Shown here piece by piece: positions 14,653 through 61,759 of a DNA stretch of 64,000 nt. The notes below the pieces were generated by a model. The model worked only from the letters and a program-made list of their open reading frames with translations. It did no database searches and had not been told where the DNA came from. The position numbers were made by a program, and so were the translations under genes. The DNA comes from Pseudomonadota bacterium (lineage in GTDB: Bacteria > Desulfobacterota > Desulfobacteria > Desulfobacterales > JAHIVH01). The stretch covers positions 479 through 64,478 of the forward strand of contig JAHIVH010000129.1 of assembly GCA_018816735.1 (NCBI GenBank). Reading direction: 5' to 3'. Positions within the stretch are counted from its first letter, which is position 1; every line of letters begins with the position of its first letter.

Positions 14653-14654
14653 TG

Positions 14655-16460
14655 ATGCCTGAAAAAATTAAATTAATGGACTGGATCAGGGAGCATCTGT
14701 TTAATGTGGTGCCCATGTCCATCGCGGTGATCGATAGAGACTTCAACCTTGTATATGCAAACAAGCCTTTTGAGGAGAAGTTTGGAAAGTGGAAAGGGAA
14801 AAAATGTTTTTCTGTTTATAAAAGCAGCACAACCATGTGTTTGAACTGCAAGGGCGCAGAAGCGTTTCAGGACGGAAAACCACGGGTAAACGAGGAGATC
14901 GGTTTTGATAAATCAGGAAAACTCACCAAATATATCAAACATACAATGCCGGTGGTTGATTCAGATGGAAGCATTCCGTTTCTGGTTGAAATGGCCACAG
15001 ATATCACAGAAGCTTCTATCATCAAAAAGGAATATCAACTTCTCTTTGACCAGGTACCCTGCAGTATCCTGGTTATTGACAGGAATTTCAGAATTGTACG
15101 AACCAATAAAAAAATTCGCGAAACATTTGGTGATCTGACAGGAAAGTATTGTTACAGCTCCCTTAAGGGTTTCAACGATAAATGTCTGGAATGCACGGCT
15201 AGAGATACGTTTTCAGACGGTGAAATGCATACCGGGAATCATGTGTGGCGAACAAAAGATGGTGAAGATATTCATTCTCACGTATCAACGGTGCCTCTTT
15301 TCAAGGAAGACGGGACATTTGACATGGTGATGGAAATGGCTGTGGATATTACCCATACACTTGAACTCGAGGATGAATTGAAAATCGCCTATTCTTTCAT
15401 GGAAACCATGATCGCCACGGCTATTGACGGTATCATCGCCATTGACATTGAAGGCGACATTATCATTTTTAACAAGGCTGCGAGAGATATTTTCAATATT
15501 CATGACAAGCGGAAAATGACAAAGATAGAGCTTGAGGTACTTCTTCCCGAAGGATTTATGGCTCAGGTGCTCTTGGGACCGGGACATGTTTATCTTCCTG
15601 AAGCATATGTCAAAACCATAGACGATGATAAAAAGCCGGTTCGGTTGTCAGGAAATAAAATTGAGTTTGGAGACGGAAAGTCCGGTATGGCATTTTCCAT
15701 ACAGGATTTAAGGGAGTTAAAGCGCCTTGAATCGGAAAAGCTCGAAGCCGAACGAATGGCTGCTGTGGGACAGACAGTGGCAGGCCTTGCCCATGGTGTC
15801 AAAAATCTGATAACCGGCCTTGAAGGCGGTATGTATATGATGAATTCCGGAATGAAGAAAGGCGATGTGGATAGAATTCAAAAAGGGCTTGAAATGCTCG
15901 ATAGAAATATCTTAAGGGTGTCGACTTTCGTAAAGGAATTTCTTAATTTTTCCAAAGGCCGTAAAATAAAAGTGGGTGAATGCGAACCTGGAAAAATTGC
16001 AAGAGACGTTGTGGAACTTTATGCCAGCCAGGCAGGAAAATTTTCTGTCGAGCTGATTTGCGAAACAGACGACAATATCATGCCTGCGCTTATGGATGGA
16101 GAAGGCATTCATGAATGTCTGACCAATCTCGTGGGAAACGCCATTGATGCGTGCCGGATGAGCGACAACCAAGGTGGCAATCATGTCTGGGTTAAAACTC
16201 ACGAAAAAGATGATGTGATTGTCTATGAAGTTGTTGACGATGGATGTGGAATGGATTACGAAGTCAAGAAAAAAGTCTTTACCAATTTTTTTACGACAAA
16301 AGGTCTGGGCGGAACTGGCATCGGCCTGTTAACGACCAAGAAAATCGTTCAGGAACATGGCGGGAAAATAGAACTTCAGTCTGAGGAGGGCAAGGGAACC
16401 ACTTTCAGGATTCGCCTGCCGAGAAACCGACTTCCCAAACCTGAATCAATTGATATTTGA
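14655..16460 (+). CDS. Soluble multi-PAS sensor histidine kinase with two C-x10-C-x2-C PAS domains (HK1)
   Basis: No TM segment. 'GKKCFSVYKSSTTMCLNCKG' and 'GKYCYSSLKGFNDKCLECTA'. H-box 'AGLAHGVKNLITGLEGG'. ATPase boxes 'NLVGNAIDA', 'DDGCGM' and 'GGTGIGL'. Confidence 0.9.
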   Translation: MPEKIKLMDWIREHLFNVVPMSIAVIDRDFNLVYANKPFEEKFGKWKGKKCFSVYKSSTTMCLNCKGAEAFQDGKPRVNEEIGFDKSGKLTKYIKHTMPVVDSDGSIPFLVEMATDITEASIIKKEYQLLFDQVPCSILVIDRNFRIVRTNKKIRETFGDLTGKYCYSSLKGFNDKCLECTARDTFSDGEMHTGNHVWRTKDGEDIHSHVSTVPLFKEDGTFDMVMEMAVDITHTLELEDELKIAYSFMETMIATAIDGIIAIDIEGDIIIFNKAARDIFNIHDKRKMTKIELEVLLPEGFMAQVLLGPGHVYLPEAYVKTIDDDKKPVRLSGNKIEFGDGKSGMAFSIQDLRELKRLESEKLEAERMAAVGQTVAGLAHGVKNLITGLEGGMYMMNSGMKKGDVDRIQKGLEMLDRNILRVSTFVKEFLNFSKGRKIKVGECEPGKIARDVVELYASQAGKFSVELICETDDNIMPALMDGEGIHECLTNLVGNAIDACRMSDNQGGNHVWVKTHEKDDVIVYEVVDDGCGMDYEVKKKVFTNFFTTKGLGGTGIGLLTTKKIVQEHGGKIELQSEEGKGTTFRIRLPRNRLPKPESIDI

Positions 16461-16488
16461 CAATATAACTGGTGAAATTACCTTACCA

Positions 16489-18243
16489 ATGAACGGGAAA
16501 AAAAATCTGGTATTATTCCTTGGAGACGGGGTAAATAATCTTCATCTGATTGCAGAGTGTCTGGCAAGAGAGATAAACAGGGAGCCTGTGGAATTTATCA
16601 GTGCATCCATGACGCCACCTCTGATTAATCCGTTAACCGCCAAGGTCATGCAGGCTTCGGGATTTGATATCTCAACGCTTCCTCTGCGTTCACTTCTTGA
16701 TGTGGAACCGTTCATGTTCGATTTGATTATCACCGTTGGAGATTTTGATCAGGATTGCAGACCCACGCTGCCGGGCATGCCGCCTCATTTTCACTGGGAT
16801 GTGCCTGATCCTCCGCCAGGTACAGATGTTGAAGAACTTTTCAGGTCCTTGAGAGAAGCAAAGGACATGATCCTCAATAAACTGGATACCATATTTTCTT
16901 CAGGACTATTGACGGCCCTTTTTGTAACACGACGAAAACTTGAAGTGATTATCGATAACCTCCTGGATGGTGTTATGGCGCATACCACCAATCGACGGAT
17001 TTTCTTTTTCAATAAGGCTGCGGAGAATATTACCGGATACAGACGGGAAGATATTCTGGGGAAAGACTGCCATGATGTTTTTCCTGGCAGGTTTTGCGGT
17101 GGGGATTGCGAATTCTGCGAAAGTGCAGAGAAAAATATGAAAGGTCATGTCATGAAAAAGGAAATCTTTTTCAGACGTCTGGAGGGAGATGAACGTGTTC
17201 TTAAAATGTCCATCATGCCGCTTTCAGATGAAGAGGGAAAGGATATTGGCGCACTTCTTTCATTCAGGGATGATACTGAACTGGATCAACTGAAAAGACG
17301 GCTAAGACATCATCATACGCTTGGAAATCTTGTGGGGAAAGACCCTAAAACACTGGAGCTTTTTGATCAGATCAGAGAAGTGAGCTCGGTAATGGTTCCG
17401 GTTTTGGTTGAAGGGGAGAGTGGCACAGGAAAAGAACTGGTGGCAAATGCCATTCATGATATTGGTCCCAGGACCGGGAAGCCTTTTGTTGCCATCAATT
17501 GCGGCGCATTGCCGGAAGGGATTCTCGAAAGTGAACTTTTTGGCCATGTCAGTGGTGCGTTTACAGGTGCCGTTCAGAACAGGAAAGGCCGATTCGAACT
17601 GGCTGACGGGGGAACGATTTTTCTGGACGAAGTGGGTGAACTGACGTCTGCCATGCAGGTTAAGCTGCTTCGCGTGCTTCAGGAAAAGAGATTTGAAAGG
17701 GTTGGGGGAGAAAAGACCATTCAGGTCGACGTCAGAGTGATTAGCGCTACAAATCAGAATTTAAAAGAGCTGATTGACAAAAAAATGTTCAGACGGGATC
17801 TGTATTACAGACTGTGCGTCATGCCTATTTCTCTTTTGCCTTTAAGGGAAAGACGCCTTGACATACCCACGCTGGTGGAACATTTTCTTGAAGTGATTGC
17901 AAGTGAGGTCAAGCGGTCTGTCCTGGTACCGTCCAATGATGTGATGGATGCATTGTCCCGTTATGACTGGCCGGGAAACGTAAGAGAGCTTCGAAACGCA
18001 ATCGAATACACGTATGTAAAATGCAGAACCGGAAAAATTATCCTGGACCACCTGCCTCCGGAGATTGTGAATTTCAAACAGAAAATAAAAGTTAAACCTG
18101 GCCCCTCTCTCAAGCACAACAAGGAGGAAGTGATCCTTGCGCTGTCACAATCTGAAGGCAACAGAAAAGAAGCTGCCAAAATTCTTGGCATCGGCCGAGC
18201 GACACTTTACCGGTATCTGGATGTTTATGAGCTTAATTCCTGA
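16489..18243 (+). CDS. Sigma-54-dependent transcriptional activator (bEBP): degenerate ArsC/LMW-PTP-like domain, Cys-rich PAS, AAA+, Fis-type HTH; no receiver domain
   Basis: AAA+ 'GESGTGKE', 'GAFTGA', 'ESELFGH', 'WPGNVREL'. C-terminal HTH 'NRKEAAKILGIGRATLYRYL'. PAS 'GKDCHDVFPGRFCGGDCEFCES'. The N-terminal ~130 aa is colinear with the ArsC at 12162-12608. The start is either the ATG at 16489 or the TTG at 16450. Confidence 0.9.
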   Translation: MNGKKNLVLFLGDGVNNLHLIAECLAREINREPVEFISASMTPPLINPLTAKVMQASGFDISTLPLRSLLDVEPFMFDLIITVGDFDQDCRPTLPGMPPHFHWDVPDPPPGTDVEELFRSLREAKDMILNKLDTIFSSGLLTALFVTRRKLEVIIDNLLDGVMAHTTNRRIFFFNKAAENITGYRREDILGKDCHDVFPGRFCGGDCEFCESAEKNMKGHVMKKEIFFRRLEGDERVLKMSIMPLSDEEGKDIGALLSFRDDTELDQLKRRLRHHHTLGNLVGKDPKTLELFDQIREVSSVMVPVLVEGESGTGKELVANAIHDIGPRTGKPFVAINCGALPEGILESELFGHVSGAFTGAVQNRKGRFELADGGTIFLDEVGELTSAMQVKLLRVLQEKRFERVGGEKTIQVDVRVISATNQNLKELIDKKMFRRDLYYRLCVMPISLLPLRERRLDIPTLVEHFLEVIASEVKRSVLVPSNDVMDALSRYDWPGNVRELRNAIEYTYVKCRTGKIILDHLPPEIVNFKQKIKVKPGPSLKHNKEEVILALSQSEGNRKEAAKILGIGRATLYRYLDVYELNS

Positions 18244-32158: not shown

Positions 32159-33415
32159 ATGAAAAAAAGAATTGCAATTATTGGCGGGGGAATTGCCGGG
32201 CTCACGGCCGCTTATCTGCTCGATAAAAAACATGACATCACGCTGTTTGAGAAAGATGACCGGGTTGGCGGCAATGCATATACACACAAAACCTCTACAG
32301 GCGAAACATTTGATATTGCGGTTGGTTCGGTTTTAAATCGTGTGGCAGGGAATTTTTTAAAATTGTGTGATGAACTGGACGTCAAGCTGGTCAGGCAGCC
32401 CAAAGCCAGTTTGATCAGCATCCATGATCTGGAATCAGATGACGGCCTTTATTTGACACCGTTGAGTATCAAAGGGTTGTTTGCACAAAAATTTGCGCTT
32501 TTCAAATATACAAAATCATTTATCAAGACAGCTTATGCCAATTATAAAGCGGTCAGACTTTTGGAGAAGGGGCGGTTGAAAGATCTTACGGTTGAAGACA
32601 TGTTCTCCCTTCTGCCGGAACTGACAAGGTTTGAAAAATTAGCAATGATGGCGCCTTTTTGTTTGCTTTCGTCCATGCAATATAAAGAGGTGAGCAAAGG
32701 GCCTTCTGAATATTTTGCCGGTAAAATGAAGGCCCATGGAAAATTTAATCCTGTGATAACCATGCTCGGGAATTATTTCCCAAAGCATTTCACACAAAGT
32801 TATGTGGATGCACTGATATATGACTGCAGGGAAAAGGTTGTTCTCAATTCAAACATAAAAGCCGTAAAGAGGAATGAAGCGGCGGTTTTTCTGCAAATGA
32901 AGGATGGAAAAGAATATGCTTTTGATAAAGTCGTATTTGCCTGCAACGCAGATCAGGCATTATCCCTGCTTGACAACCCGACGGAAGATGAAAAGAGATT
33001 GTTGGGGGCCTGGATATATAAGGATGTACCTATGGTTGTTCACCGGGATCAATCAAATTCTCCCGGAAGAGAACTTTGCCAGCCATGGACCTTGATTCAA
33101 TCTTCAGATAATGGCGTGCCCCATTTTTCAATTCATTATTGCAGCTGGCTGCTCAGCCCTGCTGCTTTAAGAAAATGTGATTATTTTTCCACACAACATC
33201 CAAGTTTTCCCATCCGGGAAGACTTGATTGATATCAGGAAAATATTTCGGGTGCCCTTTTATGATTTTAAGTCATTTGGAACGATTCAGGATCTTCCTTC
33301 ACTAAATGGAAACATGCATTCATATTACTGCGGCAGTCATTTTGGATATGGTCTCCACGGCGATGCTGTAAACTCAGCCATTGAAGTCGCAAGGCATCTC
33401 GGAATCGATTGGTAA
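32159..33415 (+). CDS. FAD/NAD(P)-binding oxidoreductase (COG2907 / amine-oxidase-like)
   Basis: Rossmann motif 'RIAIIGGGIAGLTAAYLL...ITLFEKDDRVGGNAYTH'. 418 aa. Confidence 0.75.
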   Translation: MKKRIAIIGGGIAGLTAAYLLDKKHDITLFEKDDRVGGNAYTHKTSTGETFDIAVGSVLNRVAGNFLKLCDELDVKLVRQPKASLISIHDLESDDGLYLTPLSIKGLFAQKFALFKYTKSFIKTAYANYKAVRLLEKGRLKDLTVEDMFSLLPELTRFEKLAMMAPFCLLSSMQYKEVSKGPSEYFAGKMKAHGKFNPVITMLGNYFPKHFTQSYVDALIYDCREKVVLNSNIKAVKRNEAAVFLQMKDGKEYAFDKVVFACNADQALSLLDNPTEDEKRLLGAWIYKDVPMVVHRDQSNSPGRELCQPWTLIQSSDNGVPHFSIHYCSWLLSPAALRKCDYFSTQHPSFPIREDLIDIRKIFRVPFYDFKSFGTIQDLPSLNGNMHSYYCGSHFGYGLHGDAVNSAIEVARHLGIDW

Positions 33416-33542
33416 AATCGATGGTTTGTGAAACAAGTTTGGGTTGATTTTAAAATATTTTTCACATATCAATCCAATATCGATTATCAGACAATCACAA
33501 AATGACCATAGATGTTTTTCATACATGCAGGGGAAAAAACAG

Positions 33543-35978
33543 ATGACAAAACTGCCAGCTGAAAATAACCACAGGTCAAAAGTAGTTGAAAAACTCGACA
33601 GAATTTTTGAAAAGACAGGGGGCTGGTCATATGACCACAGATGGGTGATTCTTTTTGTATGTATCATGGTTTTTGGTTTATGCCTTTATCTTGCCAAAGA
33701 TGTGAGATTTGACAATAGTTTTGAAGCCTATTTTGATCGTGATGACCCGGTTTACAAAGGATTTCTTGAATTCAGAGATCACTTTGGTTCTGATGAGATA
33801 GGCTATATCCTTTATGAGGCGCCTGAAAAGAAGTATGGGGTATGGGATCTCGCCGTCATGCGCACCATAGATGAAATTTCAATTAAAATTGAAGAAAATG
33901 CGCCATTTGTCAAGCGGGTTCTTTCACTTTCAAATGCAGAGTTCATAGAGGGACGGGATGGAGAGCTGATTGTTCATGATATACTGAACGATTTTCCGGA
34001 GACTCAGGAAGATATGCTGAAAATCCGTGACAAGGTTCTCGCCAAACCCTTGTATCTGAATGGGCTTGCAGATGCATCCGGCCGATTTGGCGCCATTGTC
34101 GTTGAAATGCACAAATCGAGTATCGATCAGCTTGAGGAAATACAGGTCGATCCTGAAAAGGGTAATGATATTTATAACCTTTATCCGCAAGCCTCGGCAA
34201 TGGCTATAAAGAAGGTTCTCTCCGCATATGAGAATACGGGCATTGTGTTCTACAATACCGGTGATGTTGAACTGAATTCCGAATATAACATTATGGCCAT
34301 GAAAGAGTCTCAACGGCTGGGAATGATCACGTTCATCGTGATCGGTATTTTGCTGGCTTTTTTTTTAAGGAGTTTTTCAGGCATCGTGGGGCCGCTTTCC
34401 GTTGTCGCTCTTTCCATGTTGATTTCAGTCAGTTTTATTGGAATCATGGGTTGGAAATTTGACTTGTTATTTTCAATTTTGCCTACAGTACTTATTGCTG
34501 TGGGTGTTGCGGATTCGGTTCATATTGTCTCTGATTTCAGAACATATTACAAATCCCTGAATGACAGGCGAGGAGCCATTAAACGTACACTTTACCTGAC
34601 CGGACTGCCTTGCCTGTTCACCAGTCTCACAACAGTTGCCGGGTTCGCTTCGATGGCAATTTCCCCGATAAAAATCATCAAGCATTTTGCCATTTACAGT
34701 GCGGTAGGGATTTTCGGCGCATTTGTCCTCTCTGTTACATTTCTTGTCGTTTTCCTTTCATTTGGGAAAAAGAGCATCAACGGAAATTCACCTGAAAAAT
34801 CCCGTAAAAAGGACCTGGGAAATGTTCTTCTCAAAAAGTCACTTCAATATGTGGCACGGTTTGATATCAGGTACAAATGGACGATTATCATTGTTTCATT
34901 GATTGTCGGCATCTTTGCGGCAGGTGGTGTGCTTCAGATTAGAATCGATTCAAATTTTCTTTCGGAATTTTCAGACAAAGTAGATATCAAGAGAGTGACA
35001 AAGAGAGTGGACGAGGTCATGGGGGGAACGATAAGCTACAGCTATGTGTTCAATTCTGAAGCACCCGAAGGTATCATTGAGCCGGAGGTCCTTGCCGAAA
35101 TCAAGGCACTTCAGGACAAGGCCAATGAAATGGATATTGTAATGAAAACATACTCAATTGTTGATTTGCTTCAGGATATCAACAAAACCTTTCATGATGA
35201 AGATCCGGATTATTATGTCCTTCCGGATACCAAAGCGCAAACAGCCCAATATCTGCTTGTCTACGAGATGTCCGGTGGAGAGGAACTTGAAAATTACATT
35301 ACTTCCAGCTATGGCAGTGCCAACCTGGAAATTCGAACGAAACTCGCAAACGCTAGCGAAACGGAAAAATTTGTAGATAGCATGGATCGTTTTCTCCAAT
35401 CCAGAAATTCTGATGCCATAAAACCGATATTAACCGGAATGGGGGCGTTGTGGTATAAATTGATAAAGTATATCGTTCAGAGTCAGATCGCCGGTTTTTT
35501 GATCGCATTTTCCGTAATCGCAGTGATGATGTGCGTTCTTTTCGGGTCGGTCCGTGTGGGATTGCTTTCAATGGTTCCCAATCTGGCTCCCGTGGTCCTG
35601 ACGCTGGGTGTCATGGGATGGGCAGGCGTGCCTCTGGATTATGTCAAATTGATGATCGGATGCATATCCATCGGTATTGCTGTGGATGATACGATCCATC
35701 TTGTCAATCGATATCAACATGAATTCCGTCGGTGCGGCAATTATGAAAAAGCCCTTTTAAACAGCATGAATCACGTGGGCAGAGCGATTTTCATCACATC
35801 TGTTGTGCTGTTTTCCGGATTTCTTGTTTTTCTGAATTCACTGATGGACAGTCTTGCCCAGTTCGGTGTACTGGTTTCGGCAACTATCATTACGGCGTTT
35901 ATGGCGGATTTCTTTTTGATGCCGGCCCTGCTTTTAGCGTTAAAACCATTTGGTCCCGAATTTTCAATAGAAGAGTAG
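33543..35978 (+). CDS. MMPL/RND-superfamily exporter with a sterol-sensing-like domain (paralogue 1)
   Basis: Two 6-TM bundles and two large loops. 'VGVADSVHI' and 'GIAVDDTIHLVNRY' motifs. The start is uncertain: ATG at 33543 (GGGGA SD) or ATG at 33525; the track uses the TTG at 33444. Confidence 0.8.
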   Translation: MTKLPAENNHRSKVVEKLDRIFEKTGGWSYDHRWVILFVCIMVFGLCLYLAKDVRFDNSFEAYFDRDDPVYKGFLEFRDHFGSDEIGYILYEAPEKKYGVWDLAVMRTIDEISIKIEENAPFVKRVLSLSNAEFIEGRDGELIVHDILNDFPETQEDMLKIRDKVLAKPLYLNGLADASGRFGAIVVEMHKSSIDQLEEIQVDPEKGNDIYNLYPQASAMAIKKVLSAYENTGIVFYNTGDVELNSEYNIMAMKESQRLGMITFIVIGILLAFFLRSFSGIVGPLSVVALSMLISVSFIGIMGWKFDLLFSILPTVLIAVGVADSVHIVSDFRTYYKSLNDRRGAIKRTLYLTGLPCLFTSLTTVAGFASMAISPIKIIKHFAIYSAVGIFGAFVLSVTFLVVFLSFGKKSINGNSPEKSRKKDLGNVLLKKSLQYVARFDIRYKWTIIIVSLIVGIFAAGGVLQIRIDSNFLSEFSDKVDIKRVTKRVDEVMGGTISYSYVFNSEAPEGIIEPEVLAEIKALQDKANEMDIVMKTYSIVDLLQDINKTFHDEDPDYYVLPDTKAQTAQYLLVYEMSGGEELENYITSSYGSANLEIRTKLANASETEKFVDSMDRFLQSRNSDAIKPILTGMGALWYKLIKYIVQSQIAGFLIAFSVIAVMMCVLFGSVRVGLLSMVPNLAPVVLTLGVMGWAGVPLDYVKLMIGCISIGIAVDDTIHLVNRYQHEFRRCGNYEKALLNSMNHVGRAIFITSVVLFSGFLVFLNSLMDSLAQFGVLVSATIITAFMADFFLMPALLLALKPFGPEFSIEE

Positions 35979-37407: not shown

Positions 37408-37608
37408 ATGGCAGATGGTATTGTTAAATGGTTTAGCCAGGAAAAAGGGTATGGATTTATCGAACAACAAAATGGTCCGGATGTATTTGTCCATCATTCG
37501 GGCATCAATGCCTCAGGATTTAAATCCCTGAATGAGGGAGACAGGGTTACATTTGAAATCAACCAGGGTCCAAAAGGGCCAACCGCTGTGAATGTGACCG
37601 TTGTGTAA
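37408..37608 (+). CDS. Cold-shock protein (CspA family)
   Basis: '[15 protein letters not shown]' (RNP1) and 'VFVHHS' (RNP2). 66 aa. Confidence 0.95.
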
Positions 37609-37686: not shown

Positions 37687-39378
37687 TCACATATCTGCGG
37701 CCGTAACCCTTTCCAGTTCATCAATGGTGGTAAGTCCGCGCAGCACTTTTTTTAAACCATCGTACCTGAGGGTTTCAAAACCACTTTGTTTGGCCTTTTT
37801 TTCGATTTCTATGATGGAAACGTTTTTGGCCACCATTGACCGGATTTCTTCCGTCATGATAAAGATTTCATGGATGGCTACCCTGCCTGTATATCCGGTG
37901 TGGTTGCAGTCCAGGCATCCTTTGCCTTTATAGAAGGTGACTTTTTTTTGGCCGTTCCAGATGAAATATCGTTCTATTTCGGAAGGATCCGGTTCATACG
38001 ATTCCTTGCATTTGGGGCATATCTGCCGTACAAGGCGCTGGGCCATTACACCTATTATGGAGGGGGCTACAAGAAAAGGCTCTACCCCGATTTCAACCAG
38101 GCGGGTTACTGCCTGAAGGGAATTGTTGGTGTGCATGGTGGCCAGAACAAGGTGACCGGTCAAGGCAGCCTGGGAGGCTATTTTAGCAGTCTCAAGATCA
38201 CGTATCTCGCCGATCAGTATTACATCAGGGTCCTGCCGGAGAAAAGACCTTAAAATTGATGCAAAGTTGAGTTCAACCCCGGGATTAATCTGTACCTGGT
38301 TTACGCCCGGCAATTTGTATTCCACAGGATCTTCAGCGGTCATGATGTTGACTTCCGGCTCGTTCAAATGCTGTAACACGGAAAAAAGGGTCGTTGTCTT
38401 ACCGGAGCCTGTGGGTCCGGTGACAAAAAATACGCCATTAGGCGTGTCAATGATTTTTTTGAGGATATCGATATTTTTCTGAGAAAGTCCCAGCTGTTCA
38501 ACAGTGGGTATGTGCTGTTTGCCTGCCTGCCCCAGAATACGCAAGACCATTTTTTCGCCATGAATCGTGGGGATGGAAGAAAACCTGAAATCTATCGATC
38601 GATTGGAAAGATCAAGGCTGAATCTGCCGTCCTGAGGCCGTCTTTTTTCCGTAATGTCAAGGCCAGCCATCACTTTCATGCAACTGGCAATGGGTGAAAT
38701 AAGTTCACTGCTCAGTTTGATTCTGTCGTTCAGAACCCCATCCACCCGGAATCGAATTCTGACCAGTTTTTCCTGTGATTCGATATGAATATCACTGGCT
38801 TTCTCCTTGATGCCCAGAAGCATGATTGCCCGGCAGAACTCCACGAGTGCTTTATCGCCGGCCATGGCTTTTAATTCTTCAGGGGTTATTTTGTCCGAAC
38901 CGGCAAAAGCATTCTCCATAATATTGTTCATTAAGCCGGATATAGCTTCCTTTGACTGATACTGGACTTCAATGCTGTCTTCGATTTCTTCCGGAAAGGA
39001 AAAGATCATGCTCACTTTTTTGCCTATGAGACTTTCCGCATCTTTTATCGCGTCCAGGTTCATCGGGTTTGCTGTCGCTATAGTTACGGTTCCCTCGATT
39101 TCATAAAGGGGAATCATTTTATGTTTTTTTGCCAAGTCCTGGGGAAGTTTTTTAATGATGGAGGGTTGGAAAAGTGTTTTTGAGAGTTCCACATAAGAAA
39201 CGCCAATGGAATCGCCCCATAATTTCCCTAAAATATTTTTATCGATACCCCCTTTTTTCTTAAGATGCTTTAAAATTTCATAAGTATCATCACTGTATTC
39301 AATCCTCAATTTTTTCACATCATCTTCGGTAAGTATCTTTTTTAAAACAAGAAAGTTCATGAAATTTTGATTTTTCAT
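37687..39378 (-). CDS. GspE/PilB-family secretion ATPase (T2SS/T4P type), orphan
   Basis: Walker A 'GPTGSGKTTTL', 'ILIGEIRD', His box 'TGHLVLATMHTN', tetracysteine 'CPKC...CLDCNHTGYTGR', and a T2SSE_N-like N-terminus. No other T2SS or pilus genes are adjacent. Confidence 0.9.
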   Translation of the reverse strand: MKNQNFMNFLVLKKILTEDDVKKLRIEYSDDTYEILKHLKKKGGIDKNILGKLWGDSIGVSYVELSKTLFQPSIIKKLPQDLAKKHKMIPLYEIEGTVTIATANPMNLDAIKDAESLIGKKVSMIFSFPEEIEDSIEVQYQSKEAISGLMNNIMENAFAGSDKITPEELKAMAGDKALVEFCRAIMLLGIKEKASDIHIESQEKLVRIRFRVDGVLNDRIKLSSELISPIASCMKVMAGLDITEKRRPQDGRFSLDLSNRSIDFRFSSIPTIHGEKMVLRILGQAGKQHIPTVEQLGLSQKNIDILKKIIDTPNGVFFVTGPTGSGKTTTLFSVLQHLNEPEVNIMTAEDPVEYKLPGVNQVQINPGVELNFASILRSFLRQDPDVILIGEIRDLETAKIASQAALTGHLVLATMHTNNSLQAVTRLVEIGVEPFLVAPSIIGVMAQRLVRQICPKCKESYEPDPSEIERYFIWNGQKKVTFYKGKGCLDCNHTGYTGRVAIHEIFIMTEEIRSMVAKNVSIIEIEKKAKQSGFETLRYDGLKKVLRGLTTIDELERVTAADM

Positions 39379-39530
39379 GATGATTGGTTTCTCCTGTCTG
39401 CGTGTTTTTTTTCAAGAAGTTTTTTGATTTCATCCTGCGAAAGAACACCTTTTGTTTTTATGCGCTTATCTCCTTTTTCATCTTCGACAATCTCCTTAAG
39501 CATTTTTTCAAGGTCATATCGTTCAGTCAT
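39375..39530 (-). CDS. Unlisted 51-aa ORF, translationally coupled on both sides, carrying a FliM-N-terminus-like 'LSQDEIKKLL' motif
   Basis: My translation is MTERYDLEKMLKEIVEDEKGDKRIKTKGVLSQDEIKKLLEKKHADRRNQSS. GAGGA SD 8 nt upstream. Its ATG overlaps the hybrid-kinase stop (ATGACTGA) and its TGA overlaps the ATPase ATG (ATGA). Below the track's size cutoff. Confidence 0.55.
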   Translation of the reverse strand: MTERYDLEKMLKEIVEDEKGDKRIKTKGVLSQDEIKKLLEKKHADRRNQSS

Positions 39531-40866
39531 GGGTATTCCTCTTGTTTTTTTTATATTCGGTCCATGTTTGGTTAATCATTTTTTTAATTTCCTGTGAAGG
39601 CGTGTCCTTTCTGATGTAACCGGATGCACCCAATTCAATGCACCTGGAAACGGTCTCATAATCGGATACCGATGTGAGCATGATGACAAATGCATCGGGA
39701 TCAGTCTCCATGATGTCTTTCAAGACGTCATCGCCCGTTTTCCCCGGCATGTTGATGTCAAGAAAAAGGATGTCCGGTTTTTTTTTACGAAACATATGCA
39801 TAACCTGATTCCCATTTTCCGCCTCGCCCACCACCTGGCCATTCATGGATTCAATGTTCTTTTTCATGAGAACGCGGATATGGCGTTCATCATCAGCCAG
39901 GAGCACTTTCAGCTTCCTTTTTTTCTGGCGTGTATCTTCTTCACTTGAAGCGGGATCCGGTTTAGACTCAGCCTCCGGACATTTTTCATCAGAAACAGGA
40001 TGATATGGCAGGACCAGTGAGAAAAGTGAGCCTTGTCCGGGGCTGCTTTTGACCAGGATATCCCCCTGATGGGCTTCGGCAATTTTTTTGGCAATGGAAA
40101 GACCCAGACCGGTACTTTTTTCCCCGCCCGTTGGTTTGACGCTCAAACGCTGAAATTCGCCAAACAGTTTATCCTGCTCTTCTTCGGGAATGCCTGTACC
40201 CTGGTCTTTTATATGAAAAAAGAGCTTTTCATTTTCTGTTTTTACGCTAATCATGACTGTTGTGTTTTCAGGGGAATACTTGATGGCATTTCCGATCAGA
40301 TTATCAATGACCTGGATTATTTTCTGGGTGTCAAGGCTGACCGGACTGAGTTCTTCTATGGAAAATTCGATCTTTATTTTTTTTTTCCGGGAAACGATAT
40401 GGTAGAGTTTGATCCGCTCTTCAACGAGTTTCCCAAAGGACACCGTCTCCAAAACAAGATCCAGTCGGCCACTTTCAATTGCCGAGACATCCAGGAGGTC
40501 ATTTACCAGATTCAACATATCCTGGCTTGCCTTGTGAATAATTGAAATCAGGCTTTTCTGCTCCTGGGACAGCGGATCGGTTTCTTCATCCAAAAGCATT
40601 TCGCTGAACCCTCTGATGGATACCAGAGGTGTTCTCAGATCATGGGCAGCCATCCCCAGAAAACGGTTTTTCACTTTGTTCAGTTCAAACAGTTTCTTCT
40701 CTGATATGGCGTAATTATCAATTATTTTTTTTAACAGCCTGTTTAAGGTTTCCGTATCATTTTCAAAAGCCCTAAAGTTTACAAGCATAATGATCATCTC
40801 TGATGGCTTGAGTTCATTTTTTAAAAGTTTTTCAAGATGAATATAAAACGCTTGTTTGCTATTCAT
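39523..40866 (-). CDS. Hybrid sensor histidine kinase with a C-terminal receiver domain
   Basis: H-box 'MAAHDLRTPL', 'IGNAIKYS', 'DQGTGIPEE', 'GLGLSIAK'. Receiver 'KVLLADDERHIR...KPDILFLDINMPGKTG'. I placed the start at the ATG at 40866 (MNSKQAF...), overlapping the upstream stop. The track extends to 40941. Confidence 0.88.
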   Translation of the reverse strand: MNSKQAFYIHLEKLLKNELKPSEMIIMLVNFRAFENDTETLNRLLKKIIDNYAISEKKLFELNKVKNRFLGMAAHDLRTPLVSIRGFSEMLLDEETDPLSQEQKSLISIIHKASQDMLNLVNDLLDVSAIESGRLDLVLETVSFGKLVEERIKLYHIVSRKKKIKIEFSIEELSPVSLDTQKIIQVIDNLIGNAIKYSPENTTVMISVKTENEKLFFHIKDQGTGIPEEEQDKLFGEFQRLSVKPTGGEKSTGLGLSIAKKIAEAHQGDILVKSSPGQGSLFSLVLPYHPVSDEKCPEAESKPDPASSEEDTRQKKRKLKVLLADDERHIRVLMKKNIESMNGQVVGEAENGNQVMHMFRKKKPDILFLDINMPGKTGDDVLKDIMETDPDAFVIMLTSVSDYETVSRCIELGASGYIRKDTPSQEIKKMINQTWTEYKKNKRNTHD

Positions 40867-41734
40867 TGCTGCGGAACCTTTCAAGAAGGGGGTTAATATT
40901 TCCCAGTTCACCATAGGGCCTGTCATCCAGTATCCCGTCAATTCCCACTTTTTTGAGCTTCACCAGTTTGTTGAACATAAAAACGATATCCTCCGTGTTA
41001 AAGATGCAGCTTCCATGCTGAGGAGCAATCTTGGTAAACGGAATGGTTGCCATTGTTTCAAGAGCATGAATCAGCGATCTTTCGCAGGGCATCATCATTT
41101 TGTGAAACTTGAGTATTTCCCTGACATGGCAATAGTCTTCATTGAGCGGGCATTTGTCGTAGTTCTCACAGATCCTGCATTCTTTTTTAATTTCAAGGAA
41201 AAGTTGCCACTTGCTTCCATAACTGCCGAAAAGATCGCTTGAGAACATGACTCCGGATTTCGAATCAAAGGTCACAAAACTACCACCCAAATGCGCATAA
41301 GGTGTTGAATAGAAGGCAAGCTTTCTTCCTGATGCAAAGGCAAAGTTGTACCCAAGAGTTTCAACAGACACGATTTTTGAAGACAACGAGTAATGCCTTA
41401 TAAACATGCTATTTTCTTCCTTTGAAATAATTTTTAAATCATCTCTGTCAATGATGTCTTCATAGTTTGAAACGCTGCCACACAAATCAGGGTCGTAATG
41501 CTGATAGATCAAGGCGCAAATTGATTTAGGCGTGATTCCTGTCTGAAGGATTTTCGTCATTACAGTCGGAAAATCCGGACGACTGCCCCCGTCTATCACC
41601 ACAGCCTCTTCACCGTCGATGATCAGGTAGGGGTTGCAGTGGAGGCCCTCTTGCGTGTCATTAAAGCCCACCCAAAAAACGCCATCAGCAATCTCAACGG
41701 CCCTGTCATAGTTTTCTTTGTCTCTGTTAATCAT
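40859..41734 (-). CDS. Metallo-beta-lactamase-fold, flavodiiron/ODP-like di-iron domain protein with a Cys-rich C-terminal part
   Basis: 'GVFWVGFND...CNPYLIIDGEEAVVIDGG', 'STPYAHLGGSFVTFDSKSGVMFSSDLFGS' and 'IAPQHGS' follow the FDP di-iron domain pattern. The first ligand motif is 'QHYDPDL' rather than H-x-E-x-D-H. 'CRICENYDKCPLNEDYCH' follows. Confidence 0.65.
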   Translation of the reverse strand: MINRDKENYDRAVEIADGVFWVGFNDTQEGLHCNPYLIIDGEEAVVIDGGSRPDFPTVMTKILQTGITPKSICALIYQHYDPDLCGSVSNYEDIIDRDDLKIISKEENSMFIRHYSLSSKIVSVETLGYNFAFASGRKLAFYSTPYAHLGGSFVTFDSKSGVMFSSDLFGSYGSKWQLFLEIKKECRICENYDKCPLNEDYCHVREILKFHKMMMPCERSLIHALETMATIPFTKIAPQHGSCIFNTEDIVFMFNKLVKLKKVGIDGILDDRPYGELGNINPLLERFRSNE

Positions 41735-42155
41735 AAAACCCTCATTATTTGAATAGATAGTGTTAATAATACCGAAAAAGGACGACGGTGTTTCTGCCAG
41801 TATTCAGATAGCAGGATCTGCTTCTTGATTTAAACGATTCAGTTCAGATTTGGGATTAACTCAACAACGTATTCGTATTTGGGTGCGCAGATAGTGGTTC
41901 GATCTGTTTTTTTACATGAAAAAATCTGTAAGATTTTTTCATTTTAATTACAAATATTTAATACAAAACCGGTTTAAGATCAATACAAAATTACAAGTGG
42001 GCACGGAAAGATTCGGATGATTAAAAACAGTTGCCAAATGATGACAATATTGAGATAATCCATTCCAATATAAATATCATGTTCGTAATTTCAAATTATG
42101 TTTTTTTAGCGAAACCCCGGAAAGAAAACTTCAAACAACACCAAGAGGTCAAATC

Positions 42156-55547: not shown

Positions 55548-57893
55548 ATGATACATATTGCGAATTTCGCATTCAAACACTGGAAATGGATCGTCGGCAT
55601 AAGTACGGTATTGTCCCTGATAAGCCTTTATTTTATTCTTCAGATCAGGGTAGACAATTCCATCGAAACCCTATCCATAGACAATGACCCTAAACTAGTT
55701 CTCCTTCGGCAGGCGGAAAAAACCTTCGGCGGCAACGAGTTTGTGGTCATTTCGTTCAAGGGTCACGATATTTTTTCAACACGGGTTCTTTCCATGATCG
55801 AAGCCATTACCACGGATATTGAAAAAATAGAAAATGTGGAATCGGTTTTGAGTCTTACCAATGCGGATATTGCGAAAGATGATGATGAAGGATTTGGGAC
55901 GAGAGCGCTCATCCCGAAAAACGATCGGATCGAACAATACACGGACACCCTCAAGCAAGAAGTCGTCTCAAACCGGATGTACGAAAAACTGCTCTATTCG
56001 ACGGACGGAAACGCCACGTCCATCATCGCGTGGATCGTCCCTTTGGGAAATGATGACGCTGCGCGTTGGCGTGTGGTGAACGCGATTAAGGATGTGTTAA
56101 GTGCGCATAAGGATGGCCGGCAATTTTTTTTGTTCGGTTTTCCGATCACTTCTGAAATTCTATACAGAATTACGATACAGGATCAGCTCGTCATACCGGT
56201 TATTCTCTCCTTACTAATAGGATGTCTCCTGTTCTGGATTTTTCGGGACGTTCGGTTGGTTATTCTTCCTTTCATTGTTCTTGGCATGACCGCGTTATGG
56301 GTGATGGGACTTTTTACCATGGAAGGAAACACCCTGGATGTGGTGACGTTTATAATCCCCAGTGTGCTGATGATCGTATGTTTATGTGATGCCGTCCATA
56401 TTATATCGGAATATAGAGAAACAACCTCGCAGGATGGTGATCGTGTGGAGGTTCTGAAAACCATTATCTCGCGTATCGGAACCCCCATCATGCTGACGAG
56501 TCTGACAACGGCTATCGGTTTTTTTTCCCTGGCTACAAGCAACATTAGAAGCATTCGGAATTTTGGTATATATACAGGGCTGGGGGTAATTTTTGCTTTT
56601 GGTGTGTCTGTAGCCCTGCTGCCGCTGGTCATGGCCGTGTTGCCATTAAAAAAAAATAGGCAGGAAAAAGATGATCGGACCCTGGCGGCCTTTGAAACGT
56701 TCCTTACGCGTCTGGCCGGATGGTTACTTAACCACAAAGTGAGTGTTATGGCATTGGCGCTCGTCGTCATCTCGGTTTGCCTGACCGGTGCGTTGAAACT
56801 TGAGCCCAATATGATCATCTTGGGTATGTTGAAAAAAAACGTGGCAAAGGAAGTTACCGAAGCCCAGCAATTTGTTGATGCGGAAATGGCCGGATCGGCT
56901 GAATTCGATGTCATGTTTAAAAGTGATCGGTCCGGTGCCATGCTCACGCCTGATAACCTGGAAATGATCGCTCGAATTCAGCGCCGCGTTTCAGAAATGT
57001 TCGGCATGCGTAAAAGTTTGTCGATAAACGATTATCTGAAAGAAATGAATCAAGTGCTTAACAACAATGATCCAACGTTTTATCGTATCCCCGATACCCA
57101 GGAGGAAATTGATGATTTAATGGAAATCTATTCCCTGGATGGCAAAGATGACGATTTGGAAGAGGTGGTCAGTTATGATCATGATGTGGCAAGACTCAGA
57201 TTGTTTACATATACTGCGCCGGATTCAAAGACAACACGACAGTGGATTAATCAGGCTGAAACCATTTTGCAGGAGGAATCAAGAGGGACGGATGTGTCCG
57301 TGGAAATCACCAGCCGGCCGATTGTTTGGGTGGATATGGTTGAGTCCCTGATTACGGAGATGATGAAAACATTCTCCCTGGCATTCCTCCTCATATTCTG
57401 TTTGATGTTCCTCCTTTTTCGTTCGTGGAAACTTGGGGTGATCAGTGCGATTGTGAATGTCATCCCCATCACTGTGACGTTCGGATGCATGGGTTGGTTT
57501 CACATTACCTTGAATATGGCCACTGCCGCGATGCCCAGCATCGCCATCGGCATTGCCGTGGATGATACCATTCACTTTATCTGGCGGTTTGAAAAGGAAT
57601 TCCGCCGTCACCGGACGTATCATGACGCTCTTATCCATACCCTGAAAACCGTCGGAAAACCGATTGTAATTACCTCGATACTCATTTGTACCGGGTTTGC
57701 CGTGATGTTTTTTTCCAGGTTGACCATTCTCACTGAGTTCGGCCTGTTGCTGTCCTTGACGGTTGCCGCAGCGCTTGTCGCGGATTTGTTTGTCGCACCG
57801 GTATTGATATTGATTTTCAGGCCTTTCAAATTGCAAGCCGAAGAGATGGTCGATGGCCTGGCAATGCCGGAGAAAGGCATGCTGGCGGACTGA
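55548..57893 (+). CDS. MMPL/RND-superfamily exporter (paralogue 2), visibly GC-richer than its surroundings
   Basis: 781 aa. 'LCDAVHIISEY' and 'GIAVDDTIHFIWRFEKEFRR' parallel 33543..35978. AAGGAGA SD. Confidence 0.85.
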   Translation: MIHIANFAFKHWKWIVGISTVLSLISLYFILQIRVDNSIETLSIDNDPKLVLLRQAEKTFGGNEFVVISFKGHDIFSTRVLSMIEAITTDIEKIENVESVLSLTNADIAKDDDEGFGTRALIPKNDRIEQYTDTLKQEVVSNRMYEKLLYSTDGNATSIIAWIVPLGNDDAARWRVVNAIKDVLSAHKDGRQFFLFGFPITSEILYRITIQDQLVIPVILSLLIGCLLFWIFRDVRLVILPFIVLGMTALWVMGLFTMEGNTLDVVTFIIPSVLMIVCLCDAVHIISEYRETTSQDGDRVEVLKTIISRIGTPIMLTSLTTAIGFFSLATSNIRSIRNFGIYTGLGVIFAFGVSVALLPLVMAVLPLKKNRQEKDDRTLAAFETFLTRLAGWLLNHKVSVMALALVVISVCLTGALKLEPNMIILGMLKKNVAKEVTEAQQFVDAEMAGSAEFDVMFKSDRSGAMLTPDNLEMIARIQRRVSEMFGMRKSLSINDYLKEMNQVLNNNDPTFYRIPDTQEEIDDLMEIYSLDGKDDDLEEVVSYDHDVARLRLFTYTAPDSKTTRQWINQAETILQEESRGTDVSVEITSRPIVWVDMVESLITEMMKTFSLAFLLIFCLMFLLFRSWKLGVISAIVNVIPITVTFGCMGWFHITLNMATAAMPSIAIGIAVDDTIHFIWRFEKEFRRHRTYHDALIHTLKTVGKPIVITSILICTGFAVMFFSRLTILTEFGLLLSLTVAAALVADLFVAPVLILIFRPFKLQAEEMVDGLAMPEKGMLAD

Positions 57894-59306: not shown

Positions 59307-59461
59307 GTGCCCGATTCACCTTGAGTTTCACGAAATAAGTAAAATAAGTAGCGGGGCAGAATTCGCTAAACTGTCTCAATTATGAAAACCACCGTGAACA
59401 CAGGATAGCATCAATTGGTCTGAAGAGACGTCGGTGTTTATCCGGAGGAATCAAATTGCTT

Positions 59462-61759
59462 ATGAAAAAATCGAATGGCCTTTCATCACCCGGCGTATCC
59501 TGCCAGAATTTAAAAACCATGAATGCATTTTCCGGATATCCGGGTATACTGGCTTTACTCCTATTGCTTTTGATTGCAGAAACAAGGATCGTTTTTGCCG
59601 CACAACCCGTATTTGTTGATGCCCATCTGAAGCAAATCACCATTGGACAAAATATTGAGTACTTCGAGGACCGGCAAGGCGATATGCAAATAGAAGATAT
59701 TGCCGGAAAAGAGCTAGACTGGCAGGAAAATGACAAAGTGTCTCTGGCTTTTGGTTTCACAAAATCTGTCTATTGGTTCCGGTTTACAATCAAGTTCGAT
59801 GACGGACTCAATGAAAAAATATTTATGGAGCTTGACTATCCGCTTCTGGATGATGTCACGCTGTTTACCCTGCAGTCTTCCGGTGAATATGACATTATTA
59901 AAACCGGAGATCATATGCCATTTGATGCCAGGGAGGTGGCTCACCGGTATTTCGTCTTTCCCCTTACCCCAAACAAAGGAGAAACGACTTATTATATGAG
60001 GGTCCAGACCCAGAGCAGTCTCCATTTCAAGGCAGTTTTGTGGTCACAGGCCGAGTTCGTTAAGCAGATCAACAGCACTTTTCCGGTATTATGGGTATTT
60101 TACGGGATTATGATCGCCATGGCCACTTACAATCTGCTGATCTTTTTTTCTTTAAGAGATATCGGGTTTATAGCTCTGGTATCTTTCATTATCCTGATCA
60201 GTCTCGTCCAGTTGGCGTTAAACGGGTTTGCCTTTCAATACCTCTGGCCCAACTCAGTATGGTGGGCCAATATCTGCGTGCCGATATTGCTCTGCCTATC
60301 CATGATCGCGGGATTTTTTTCTGTCCGGTTGCTTTTTACAGTCTGGTTGGGCGAAAATCCCCGTGTCAGGATGATGACCTATATCTCAGTGGTTCCCCTG
60401 TCCCTTTGTGCGCTGTTTACATTTATAGGACCGTATTCCATCAGCATGAAGATGACCATTTATTTTGCCATTCTGACCATTGTTATCATGATCATCATGA
60501 TGGTCATGGCATTCAGGTTTGGTGAACGTCAGGCGACACGACTGGCATGGCGGGCTTCTCTGGGAACGTTTAGCGCCATTTTAGGTGGCGGCGCTTATGC
60601 GCTTATGGCTTTGGGGGTTCTGCCCGTCAATTTCTTCTCTACATATGGGTTTCAGATTGGCAATGTGCTCATGGTCTTTTTCCTGTCCTTTGCCTTTGCC
60701 GACCGGTTTTCCCTGATGAAGGATGCCATGGACACAGGGACCCATATTTATGAAATGCTTAAAGGTTTTACGTCGTCGCATCAAAAAGATGAAGCAGCTC
60801 GCGATCTTTCATCAGCCAGCCAGCTTGATGAACTTGATAAGGACTTTACCCGGTTTCTTGACCAGTTCAGAGAAACATTGAAGGATGTAACGGAGAAAAC
60901 GGATATTATAGACAACTCATCTCACCAGTTAACCGAACTCTCCGTGAAGATGACAAGCGGTATCGAATCCATAGGAGAGAAATCACAAGGCGTGACCACC
61001 GTAGCCTTGAGCATGGATGAAACCATGCAGCGTATCGTGGGTACCATGGCGCAAACGATTAATCACACCGACCATGTATCTGAGGCGACTAAAAATATGA
61101 CCAGCGCGATCACACAAATTGTTAAAAATGCCAACAGCGCAAATGAAATTACAAAAAAGGCTGTGGAACAGGTCGGTGCTGCCAGTGCAAAAATTGAGGA
61201 GTTGGGACAATCTGCTCAGGAGATCACCAAGGTTACCAAAATGATTACGGAAATTTCTTCCCAGACCAATCTTTTGGCGCTGAATGCCACCATTGAAGCG
61301 GCAAGAGCAGGCGAGTCCGGAAAAGGGTTTGCCGTTGTCGCAAATGAGATCAAGGAACTGGCCAGGCAAACAGCACAAGCCACCGAACAGATCAAGGTGC
61401 AGATCGAGGCAAATAACCAGACCACTTCTGATGCAATAGATGAAATTGTAAGGATATCAGAGATCATCAACAACGTGAACCATATCGTTACCATGATCGC
61501 CGAGGAAGTTGAAAAGCAATCTCAAACGACTCAGAATATTACTGAAAATATCATTCAGGTTGCCGGTGGCATTTCGTCGGCCAATGATGATGTGGGCCAG
61601 GGCTCACAACTGGCAGGCCGGATTTCAAAAGATATTTCAGCGGTCCATCAATCTGTGGGAGAAATGACAGATATCAGCAGTTCGGTAGTTCAAAGCGCTG
61701 AATCCCTGGCAAAGCTGTCCAATCATTTGAAACAGATGGTCAGCCAGTTCCGGATTTAG
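59462..61759 (+). CDS. Methyl-accepting chemotaxis protein with a 7TMR-DISM (DISMED2 plus 7TM) input module
   Basis: Periplasmic 'SVYWFRFTI...LDDVTLF...GDHMPF..R' DISMED2-like region, then ~7 TM helices. MCP hairpin '[38 protein letters not shown]'. Start alternatives are 59456 (TTG), 59462 and 59519. Confidence 0.85.

Follow-up and report, generated by a model that had tools for sequence, protein, structure and literature searches.

Known Systems and the Locus under Study

How the motors of type IV pili and of type II secretion systems (T2SSs) are switched is an active question, and the cofactors known so far are cyclic di-GMP (c-di-GMP), PilZ/FimX and a few receiver proteins. It is known that single-domain receivers bind and regulate the extension ATPase PilB (PMC11973254; 10.1101/2021.06.11.447907), and receivers under the control of a kinase act post-translationally on the extension ATPase in the case of EmvR of Xanthomonas (PMC11973254), of the PATAN-REC proteins PixG/PixE of Synechocystis (10.1101/2021.06.11.447907), and of PilG/PilH of the Pil-Chp system (PMC11656802). 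In Archaea, phosphorylated CheY (CheY~P) acts through a dedicated adaptor, CheF, on a type IV filament-type machine, the archaellum (PMC9126983). On the sensory side, two papers (PMC7319448, PMC7666581) describe the oxygen-binding di-iron proteins (ODPs) as O2/Fe sensors linked to diverse signal-transduction genes. The present work concerns a locus of a Pseudomonadota bacterium assigned to Desulfobacterales, lying at positions 37687-41734 of a 64-kb stretch of contig JAHIVH010000129.1 (the whole stretch is hereafter referred to as the window), where four overlapping genes code for an ODP-like protein, a hybrid histidine kinase carrying a receiver domain, a peptide of 51 amino acids (aa), and a PilB/GspE-like ATPase.

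The arrangement of these genes and its recurrence in other genomes suggest that they form a cytoplasmic phosphorelay cassette having a dedicated PilB-like motor ATPase as its output, a reading to which we would assign a probability of roughly 55%. Each of its elements has a known relative, i.e., the ODP sensors, the docking of CheY on the N-terminus of FliM (FliM_N), the regulation of PilB by receivers, and the archaeal CheY-CheF logic. The cassette resembles the EmvR, PixG/PixE and PilG/PilH cases in that a receiver under kinase control would act on an extension-type ATPase; however, those receivers act on the canonical PilB, without an overlapping operon or a micro-protein, whereas the ATPase of the cassette belongs to a separate clade apparently dedicated to its receiver. 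TfpB of Acinetobacter baylyi, a second PilB-like ATPase working with the pilus machine, is also of a lineage distinct from PilB and indicates that a second extension ATPase may be encoded apart from the pilus genes; unlike the ATPase of the window, it has no dedicated receiver or peptide partners (PMC11656802). As in the archaeal system, CheY~P would act via a dedicated adaptor on a type IV filament-type machine, and the archaellum motor ATPase ArlI/FlaI shares its superfamily with the cassette ATPase (PMC9126983). CheF, on the other hand, a large dimer built of PH-like domains, contacts CheY close to the phosphorylation site and has no relation to the 51-aa peptide (PMC9126983); moreover, the archaellum genes are clustered, whereas the cassette is known here without adjoining machine genes.

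The features of the cassette are the following (with the evidence for each in brackets):

40859..41734, minus strand: putative sensor of the ODP family, 291 aa, Cys-rich subfamily (Pfam, PDB profile, AF2/Foldseek)
41129..41179, minus strand: Cys insert C186-x2-C189-x5-C195-x6-C202, subfamily-specific, candidate extra metal/redox site
39523..40866, minus strand: soluble hybrid histidine kinase, 447 aa, with N-terminal module, HisKA, HATPase_c and receiver (Pfam)
40696..40866, minus strand: N-terminal helical 'ODP-coupling' module of the kinase, approximately 55 aa (hidden Markov model, HMM)
39571..39906, minus strand: CheY-like receiver domain, fused to the kinase (PDB search, orthologues)
39375..39530, minus strand: conserved 51-aa micro-protein, proposed adaptor (homologues, synteny)
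39414..39446, minus strand: 'VLSQDEIKKLL' segment, resembling the CheY~P-docking N-terminus of FliM (profile search of PDB)
37687..39378, minus strand: hexameric-motor ATPase of 563 aa, PilB/GspE-like and in a clade of its own, no platform genes adjoining (Pfam, NCBIfam, tree)

Structure of the Operon

Four open reading frames (ORFs) were confirmed on the minus strand within 37687-41734, in the order ODP-like protein, hybrid kinase, 51-aa peptide and ATPase. The ODP and kinase genes meet at ATGAATAG, an overlap of 8 nucleotides (nt; 40859-40866); the kinase and peptide genes overlap by 8 nt as well, at ATGACTGA (39523-39530), and the peptide and ATPase genes share the 4 nt ATGA (39375-39378). 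These junctions, read directly, bear out the tightly coupled operon proposed by the first-pass annotation (a model's reading of the DNA without database searches), which had further deduced a stoichiometric co-expression of the four genes; overlapping stop and start codons, though, point to translational coupling and not necessarily to stoichiometry. A purine-rich, Shine-Dalgarno-like stretch precedes every start, e.g., AAGAGGAA for the peptide and CAGGAGAA for the ATPase. The 447 aa of the kinase are counted from its ATG, the mechanical ORF reaching back to a TTG at 40941.

Conservation of the Cassette

The ODP, the kinase, the receiver, an ORF of approximately 50 aa and the ATPase are found together in 14 loci, including that of the window, belonging to Desulfobacterota, Nitrospirota and Gemmatimonadota. 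In the 13 other ODP-type loci (L001, L002, L004, L043, L064, L066, L068, L070, L076, L080, L082 (Gemmatimonadota), L123 and L007), the same kind of overlaps recurs and the gene order is the same, except in L007, where it is permuted (receiver, peptide, ATPase, ODP, kinase). The closest relative, L123, encodes an ODP that is 74% identical and displays identical 8-nt and 4-nt overlaps. Chance alone would by no means account for such a recurrence. The first-pass annotation would have given up its proposal if the quartet had not been conserved elsewhere; the cassette is conserved in all 13. Its description of a four-gene unit stands as far as a conserved operon is concerned, but not in the division into four parts: since 12 of the 14 ODP-type loci encode the kinase (approximately 290 aa) and the receiver (approximately 128 aa) separately, the unit really consists of five functional parts. 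The fusion of the two is limited to the window and L123 (465 aa), and it speaks for a pairing of this kinase with this receiver.

Six more loci, found from ATPase homologues, contain the trio formed by receiver, peptide and ATPase without an ODP; a soluble PAS+HATPase_c kinase adjoins the trio in four of the six, and a HAMP kinase and a response regulator lie nearby in one. In all 20 loci the receiver is directly upstream of the peptide gene, which in turn ends at or overlaps the start of the ATPase gene. The peptide is directly upstream of the ATPase in 20/20 loci of this ATPase clade versus 0/31 loci of other PilB/GspE-like ATPases; the conserved core of the cassette is, then, the receiver, the peptide and the ATPase. 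The ODP and its kinase appear to be one of at least two interchangeable inputs, another being the PAS kinase, which is also cytoplasmic. Carriers of the trio include L083 and the cultivable Desulfobotulus mexicanus, the latter with the PAS kinase as input. The genes flanking the cassette are heterogeneous among loci. In L068 (Desulfobacteraceae; L068:210-3401), genes for a methyl-accepting chemotaxis protein (MCP) and a CheW-receiver fusion directly precede the ODP cassette, a hint that it may communicate with a chemosensory pathway.

The Receiver and the 51-aa Peptide

The best PDB matches of the receiver domain are CheY proteins (6er7, 2e-21; T. maritima CheY 1tmy/4iga_A, 5e-18). Its orthologues (15 sequences) share the invariant motifs DDE.H.R, D[IV]NMP, MLTSV[SA]D and GA..[YF][IL].KDTP, and the phospho-acceptor Asp, the Thr, the aromatic switch, the Lys and the alpha4-beta5-alpha5 segment are kept among them. 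In the 14 loci measured, the receiver is 47-59% identical to the domain of the window and is always encoded directly before the peptide gene.

Two loci contain a second single-domain receiver after the ATPase (L082:11234-11629 and L043:11967-12344); that of L082 is 50% identical to the receiver domain of the window, and after that of L043 come genes for a MASE1-CHASE protein and a PAS hybrid kinase. These second receivers recall the antagonistic receiver pairs of pilus chemosensory systems.

The 51-aa peptide falls into no family of Pfam, NCBIfam or PADLOC, and a word-indexed protein search retrieved only the peptide itself. An exhaustive phmmer search of 1.84 billion representatives disclosed nine stand-alone homologues of 47-56 aa and no fusions, hence no 'Rosetta stone' joining the peptide to a receiver or an ATPase. 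Judged from the alignment of 21 members and from its place in the 20 clade loci, the 51-aa ORF is a genuine gene inherited together with its neighbours, as the first reading of this DNA had assumed. The alignment has the form MxE[KR]YDLxxMLKEIxEDE, a variable charged linker, [LV]SQ[DE][DE]I[KR]K[ML]L and, at the end, a basic tail. No variation is seen at Q32 and I35, and the two conserved segments are predicted helices.

When the profile of the 21 peptides was compared with 177,635 PDB sequences, the top match was 4iga_B (E 0.067, a short match and marginal on its own), i.e., the N-terminal 20-mer of T. maritima FliM crystallised with CheY, 'klSQdDIkklL' being aligned with 'VLSQEEINQLI'. The resemblance to the FliM motif had been proposed ahead of this unbiased search. 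The PDB matches of the receiver include the CheY chain of the same 4iga entry, and the 'EIDALL' helix of FliM_N is a documented docking site of CheY~P (PMC9126983). The cassette and the CheY~P/FliM_N pair ('LSQxEIDALL'; 4iga, 1f4v; PMC9126983) resemble each other in combining a CheY-like receiver with a short, probably helical peptide of the type S-Q-[DE]-[DE]-I-x-x-L-L. They differ in that the motif-like segment belongs here to the C-terminal half of a free-standing protein of 51 aa, whereas FliM, a C-ring protein, carries its motif N-terminally; where EIDAL has its Asp, the peptide has Lys/Arg; and the target would be a PilB-like ATPase instead of the flagellar switch, the binding itself being predicted here. 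A docking of the CheY~P type on the peptide is a well-motivated hypothesis.

The peptide might, on the contrary, be an ATPase-specific inhibitor, chaperone or assembly factor, with the receiver acting directly on the ATPase, like EmvR on PilB. The tightest of the gene overlaps is the one between peptide and ATPase, the similarity to FliM_N is marginal, and direct binding of receivers to PilB is documented (PMC11973254; 10.1101/2021.06.11.447907), all of which suits such a role. Nevertheless, the order receiver, peptide, ATPase is strict in all 20 loci, the alpha4-beta5-alpha5 segment of the receiver is conserved, and what the peptide profile matched best in the PDB is a peptide in complex with CheY itself; we regard this explanation as improbable.

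In one locus (L120:7854-8004), the peptide gene is found in two overlapping frames (MFEKYDLAKMLIDVQQDE... and ...KVSQDDIKKILLEKKKK), which may be due either to a frameshift error of the assembly or to a decaying copy.

A Separate Clade of PilB/GspE-like ATPases

The ATPase matches the Pfam family T2SSE (PF00437) with E 7.6e-129 and has an N1E/'MshEN' domain at residues 59-142. Its translation contains the Walker A motif GPTGSGKTT, the Walker B motif DPDVILIGEIRD, the Asp and His boxes, and the CPKC...CLDC Zn tetracysteine. The enzyme is therefore complete, as the first-pass annotation had stated, with the N1E domain, the T2SSE core and every catalytic motif in place; on these motifs, it is catalytically intact and should be active. 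Its scores are below the NCBIfam cut-offs of both GspE (TIGR02533; 561.9 versus 630.25) and PilB (TIGR02538; 554.9 versus 675.65). The score with the TfpB equivalog is 451.6, against a cut-off of 850, which rules out that the protein is a TfpB. Its nearest relatives in the PDB, over almost the full length, are PilF and PilB, with GspE coming next.

A distance tree groups the ATPase of the window with 18 cassette ATPases in a single clade, separate from the 31 others. The N-terminal hallmark of this clade is LGKLWGDSIGxSYVDL, and W[GA][DE]S is found in 18/18 clade ATPases of the fetched loci versus 0/31 of the others. A metagenome scan with the ATPase yielded only generic PilB/GspE genes (34-50% identical), which were used as the outgroup. 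The c-di-GMP-binding motif of MshEN, RLGxx[LVI][LVI]xxG[LVIF][LVI]xxxxLxxxLxxQ (tandem 24-residue, N-terminal), is present in 0/120 clade members, even with a relaxed pattern, and this rules out a control by c-di-GMP through MshEN of the kind of MshE, PilB2 and M. xanthus PilB; the Pfam 'MshEN' match, limited to residues 59-142, is read as the general N1E part.

No gene for GspF/PilC, pilins or secretin was detected among the ORFs of the 64-kb window scanned with Pfam, and no platform, pilin or secretin genes lie within +-8-10 kb of the related loci (20 loci including the window, three phyla). The lack of such genes nearby, noted from the sequence of the window alone, is thus borne out in 19 related loci as well.

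It might be supposed that the ATPase is an ordinary PilB/GspE whose partners are encoded elsewhere, the receiver and the peptide being minor accessory regulators. Pilus genes are scattered in many genomes, and the full architecture, the intact catalytic motifs and the near full-length PDB relatives (PilB/PilF, GspE) agree with this idea. We find it unlikely, as the protein does not reach either equivalog cut-off, groups in a separate clade with its own N-terminal hallmark, lacks, with the whole clade, the c-di-GMP motif, is never adjoined by platform genes in 20 loci of three phyla, and in every case has the same receiver and peptide encoded before it.

That genes for a platform, pilins and secretin are consistently missing around the cassette across phyla could be explained in another way, the trio being a self-contained signalling or remodelling device without any filament or secretion machine, e.g., a phosphorylation-gated hexameric ATPase working on another substrate or a nucleotide-dependent switch. 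The heterogeneous flanking genes and the divergence of the N-terminal region from the c-di-GMP-binding MshEN pattern also fit such a device. However, the N1E domain, which in PilB/GspE contacts the platform of PilM/GspL type (PMC11656802), is kept together with the Zn tetracysteine, a platform-independent role is not known to be established for this ATPase family, and there are auxiliary motors whose genes lie away from those of the machines they serve (PMC11656802). Hence this possibility, too, seems to us rather doubtful, and the ATPase is preferably seen as a PilB-like motor forming the output of the relay.

A further secretion-type ATPase was observed in two Smithella loci (L070:1052-3352 and L076:2213-4513, both minus strand), where a 766-aa GAF-MshEN-T2SSE protein is encoded next to glyQS, approximately 5 kb upstream of the cassette; it is sensor-fused and no platform genes adjoin it.

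The Cys-Rich ODP

The first gene product matches the Pfam family ODP (PF19583) over profile positions 1-194 of 194 (E 2.3e-50; 171.6 bits, with a cut-off of 27.2). A profile of 21 homologues retrieved from the PDB the ODPs of T. maritima (6qrq, E 9e-27) and T. denticola (6qnm, E 2e-20), which rank well above the flavodiiron enzymes, and the AF2 model (pLDDT 84.4, pTM 0.88) has as its top Foldseek PDB matches the ODPs 6qrq, 6qwo and 6r9n (E about 5e-15). By sequence and predicted fold, the protein is a clear member of the ODP family. The residues H79, D81, D83, H148, D167 and H240 are invariant in the 21 homologues, and the positions of the metal site align with HQDPD, LHS, SGD and PQHG of 6qrq and 6qnm. 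All the motifs quoted by the first-pass annotation (TPYAH, FSSDLFGS, APQHG, HYDPDL and the Cys cluster) are present in the translation; HYDPDL, though, which it had taken for an altered ligand motif, is the norm of ODPs (both solved ones carry HQDPDV) and differs only from the flavodiiron enzymes.

The Cys cluster is a conserved mark of an ODP subfamily, its four Cys as well as C33 and C85 being invariant across the 21 homologues. In the solved ODPs the aligned region is shorter and Cys-free, and equivalents of C33 and C85 are also missing; the insert may plausibly form a second metal or redox site. With the ODPs of T. denticola and T. maritima (6qnm/6r9n and 6qrq/6qwo), the protein shares the Pfam family and the fold, as well as the conserved H-x-D-x-D...H...D...H positions. 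The solved ODPs (PMC7319448, PMC7666581) are, like the protein of the window, stand-alone, flavodoxin-free and genetically coupled to a signal transducer devoid of a sensor. The identity with them is only about 22%, they lack the Cys4 insert and the two further invariant Cys, and their partner is an MCP, whereas here it is a histidine kinase (a PP2C phosphatase in most relatives) carrying an N-terminal module.

The Putative Coupling Module and the Partners of the ODP

The soluble hybrid kinase contains HisKA (66-133, 71.5 bits), HATPase_c (179-288, 95 bits) and Response_reg (321-432, 91.9 bits) domains above the Pfam thresholds, with AAHDLRTP as its H-box; the Pfam scan gave no recognised sensor domain. 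An HMM was built from the approximately 55 residues preceding the DHp domain of 12 ODP-linked kinases and searched against 985 ORFs: it matched 65 of them with E<0.01, each directly downstream of an ODP gene and each in a different locus, the best score on an ORF not adjacent to an ODP being E 1.4. The ORFs bearing the module, which corresponds to no Pfam family, are PP2C phosphatases (mostly), kinases, or a GGDEF protein. That one N-terminal module is common to otherwise unrelated outputs adjacent to ODPs is a strong argument for the ODP being a sensor that works through protein contact, and the module, on this sequence evidence, is where the ODP most plausibly docks.

The 291-aa protein has no second domain in Pfam, so it has no flavodoxin. 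On the basis of this lack, of the specificity of the module for ODP-adjacent ORFs and of the precedent in the ODP literature, the protein is best read as a sensor of putative O2/Fe(II)/redox signals, in line with the sensor candidate proposed by the first-pass annotation, for whose flavodoxin-free, ODP-type di-iron domain Pfam, PDB profile and Foldseek agree.

A flavodiiron/flavorubredoxin enzyme, considered as a candidate, was rejected on account of the motif H-Y-D-P-D-L in place of H-x-E-x-D-H and of the absence of the flavodoxin (FMN) domain. In a broader sense, one could think of an O2/NO-scavenging di-iron oxidoreductase or a metallo-hydrolase, co-transcribed for protection instead of sensing for the kinase, given the metallo-beta-lactamase fold, a weak similarity to the flavorubredoxin NO reductase, and the Cys4 site, which could serve as a rubredoxin-like electron entry point. 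We consider this extremely improbable: apart from the missing FMN domain, the NCBIfam NO-reductase scores are 31.3 (NF003954) and 28 bits against cut-offs of 711 and 635, the closest structures are those of sensor ODPs, and the occurrence of the same N-terminal module downstream, whatever the output domain, is the signature of a sensor-transducer pair.

In a survey of the ODP subfamily (one genome per species, 289 relatives, 80 loci kept), the ORF right after the ODP codes for a SpoIIE/PP2C phosphatase of approximately 330 aa in at least 44 loci and for a HisKA kinase of approximately 290 aa in 13, rarely for a GGDEF or PilZ protein. The phosphatase with the 55-aa module is thus the commonest partner of the Cys-rich ODPs (L009 (8849-9847), L018, L035, L073, L077 and at least 39 others), which suggests an ODP-controlled partner-switching pathway in many Desulfobacterota. 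In L049 (8851-9720) and L055 (8789-9667), pairs of ODP and kinase occur without the ATPase trio, the kinase of L055 being followed by a 186-aa ORF with a receiver-like N-terminus; on the basis of these two pairs, the ODP-kinase input is a mobile two-gene module serving other outputs too.

Proposed Mechanism and Wider Meaning

In the phosphorelay outlined at the beginning, the ODP would sense O2, Fe(II) or a related redox signal and pass it on to the kinase, directly contacting its N-terminal module, and the kinase would then phosphorylate the receiver. The phosphorylated receiver might dock on the C-terminal 'LSQDEIKKLL' of the peptide, by analogy with CheY~P on the N-terminus of FliM, while the N-terminal helix of the peptide (YDLxxMLKEIxEDE) would bind the ATPase, perhaps at its degenerate N-terminal region, so that the activity or the recruitment of the ATPase would switch with the signal. 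Since the platform-facing N1E domain is kept, and there are precedents in the control of PilB by receivers and in TfpB, it may be conjectured that the ATPase most likely works as an auxiliary extension motor, gated by the signal, in a type IV filament/T2SS-like machine encoded elsewhere. In this way, anaerobes could alter piliation, adhesion or aggregation upon a change of oxygen or redox state.

Some observations weigh against this scheme. The match with FliM_N, as said above, is short and statistically marginal when taken alone, and the peptide has Lys/Arg in place of the Asp of EIDAL; AF2, run on a concatenation of receiver and peptide as a single sequence without alignment, gave a pLDDT of 47.9, which is uninformative; and the cognate platform (PilC/GspF, PilM/GspL) was located neither in the 64 kb nor within +-8-10 kb of the related loci.

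A bolder reading, which we put forward tentatively, is that the trio represents an unrecognised and widespread output branch of two-component systems in anaerobic Desulfobacterota, Nitrospirota and Gemmatimonadota. A free protein of approximately 50 aa, having captured a CheY~P docking helix in the style of FliM/CheZ, would switch a dedicated PilB-like motor, as a bacterial counterpart of the CheY-CheF-archaellum logic. Plug-in O2/redox sensors, either the Cys-rich ODP via the 55-aa module or a PAS kinase, would feed this branch, and the motor might either act in trans as the gate of a type IV filament machine or do without a classical platform.

The first-pass annotation had held that it knew of no description of such a module. 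This is true only in part, for the trio and for the ATPase clade; the links of ODPs with signalling (PMC7319448) and the regulation of PilB by receivers (PMC11973254, 10.1101/2021.06.11.447907) had, instead, already been described. Neither a review on the cofactors of PilB nor targeted searches of the literature, whose coverage is incomplete, yielded a description of the trio, the ATPase clade, the ODP-coupling module or the Cys-rich ODP subfamily. To the known cofactors of pilus and secretion motors, the cassette would add a hard-wired relay made up of a sensor, a kinase, a CheY-like receiver, a micro-protein and a motor with its own ATPase clade; at the same time, a conserved protein of 50 residues, of the kind that usually goes unannotated, would gain a concrete and testable function. 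ODP sensors would be extended from chemoreceptors to kinases and PP2C phosphatases, and the 55-aa module, being an apparent ODP docking site, could serve a genome-wide prediction of ODP partners. A pilus or secretion motor gated by oxygen, iron or redox state could also explain the rapid aggregation and attachment of strict anaerobes at oxic interfaces.

Other Features of the Window

Upstream of the operon lies the following feature:

41735..42155, minus strand: intergenic gap of 421 nt, presumed promoter region of the operon, shared with a divergent acyl-CoA synthetase gene

A sigma-70-like match (10/12) is located inside this gap on the minus strand, at 42094-42067; the count of promoter-like matches in the upstream region is not above that of shuffled controls, and the promoter role of the gap is inferred. 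The Rfam scan of the upstream region matched no family and gave no sign of a riboswitch or leader RNA ahead of the operon. A scan for terminators gave nothing above shuffled controls. On the other side of the operon, a 66-aa cold-shock (CspA-like) ORF (37408-37608, plus strand) is convergent with the ATPase gene; their 3' ends are only 78 nt apart, and no clear terminator was detected in this gap.

The rest of the window contains genes for FeoB, PFOR, Rnf, DsrMK-like proteins, Atu/Liu-type enzymes, MMPL transporters and signalling proteins. An anti-phage defence system was also considered and discarded, there being no relevant PADLOC match. Among the signalling proteins are a 7TMR-DISM methyl-accepting chemotaxis protein (59456-61759, plus strand) and a pair formed by a PAS kinase and a PAS sigma-54 activator (14652-18243, plus strand), which by their position are unrelated to the cassette. 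Two MMPL/sterol-sensing-domain RND-like transporters are encoded at 33444-35978 and 55548-57893 (both plus strand), and one MMPL transporter of the window adjoins a flavin amine-oxidase-like gene (32159-33415).

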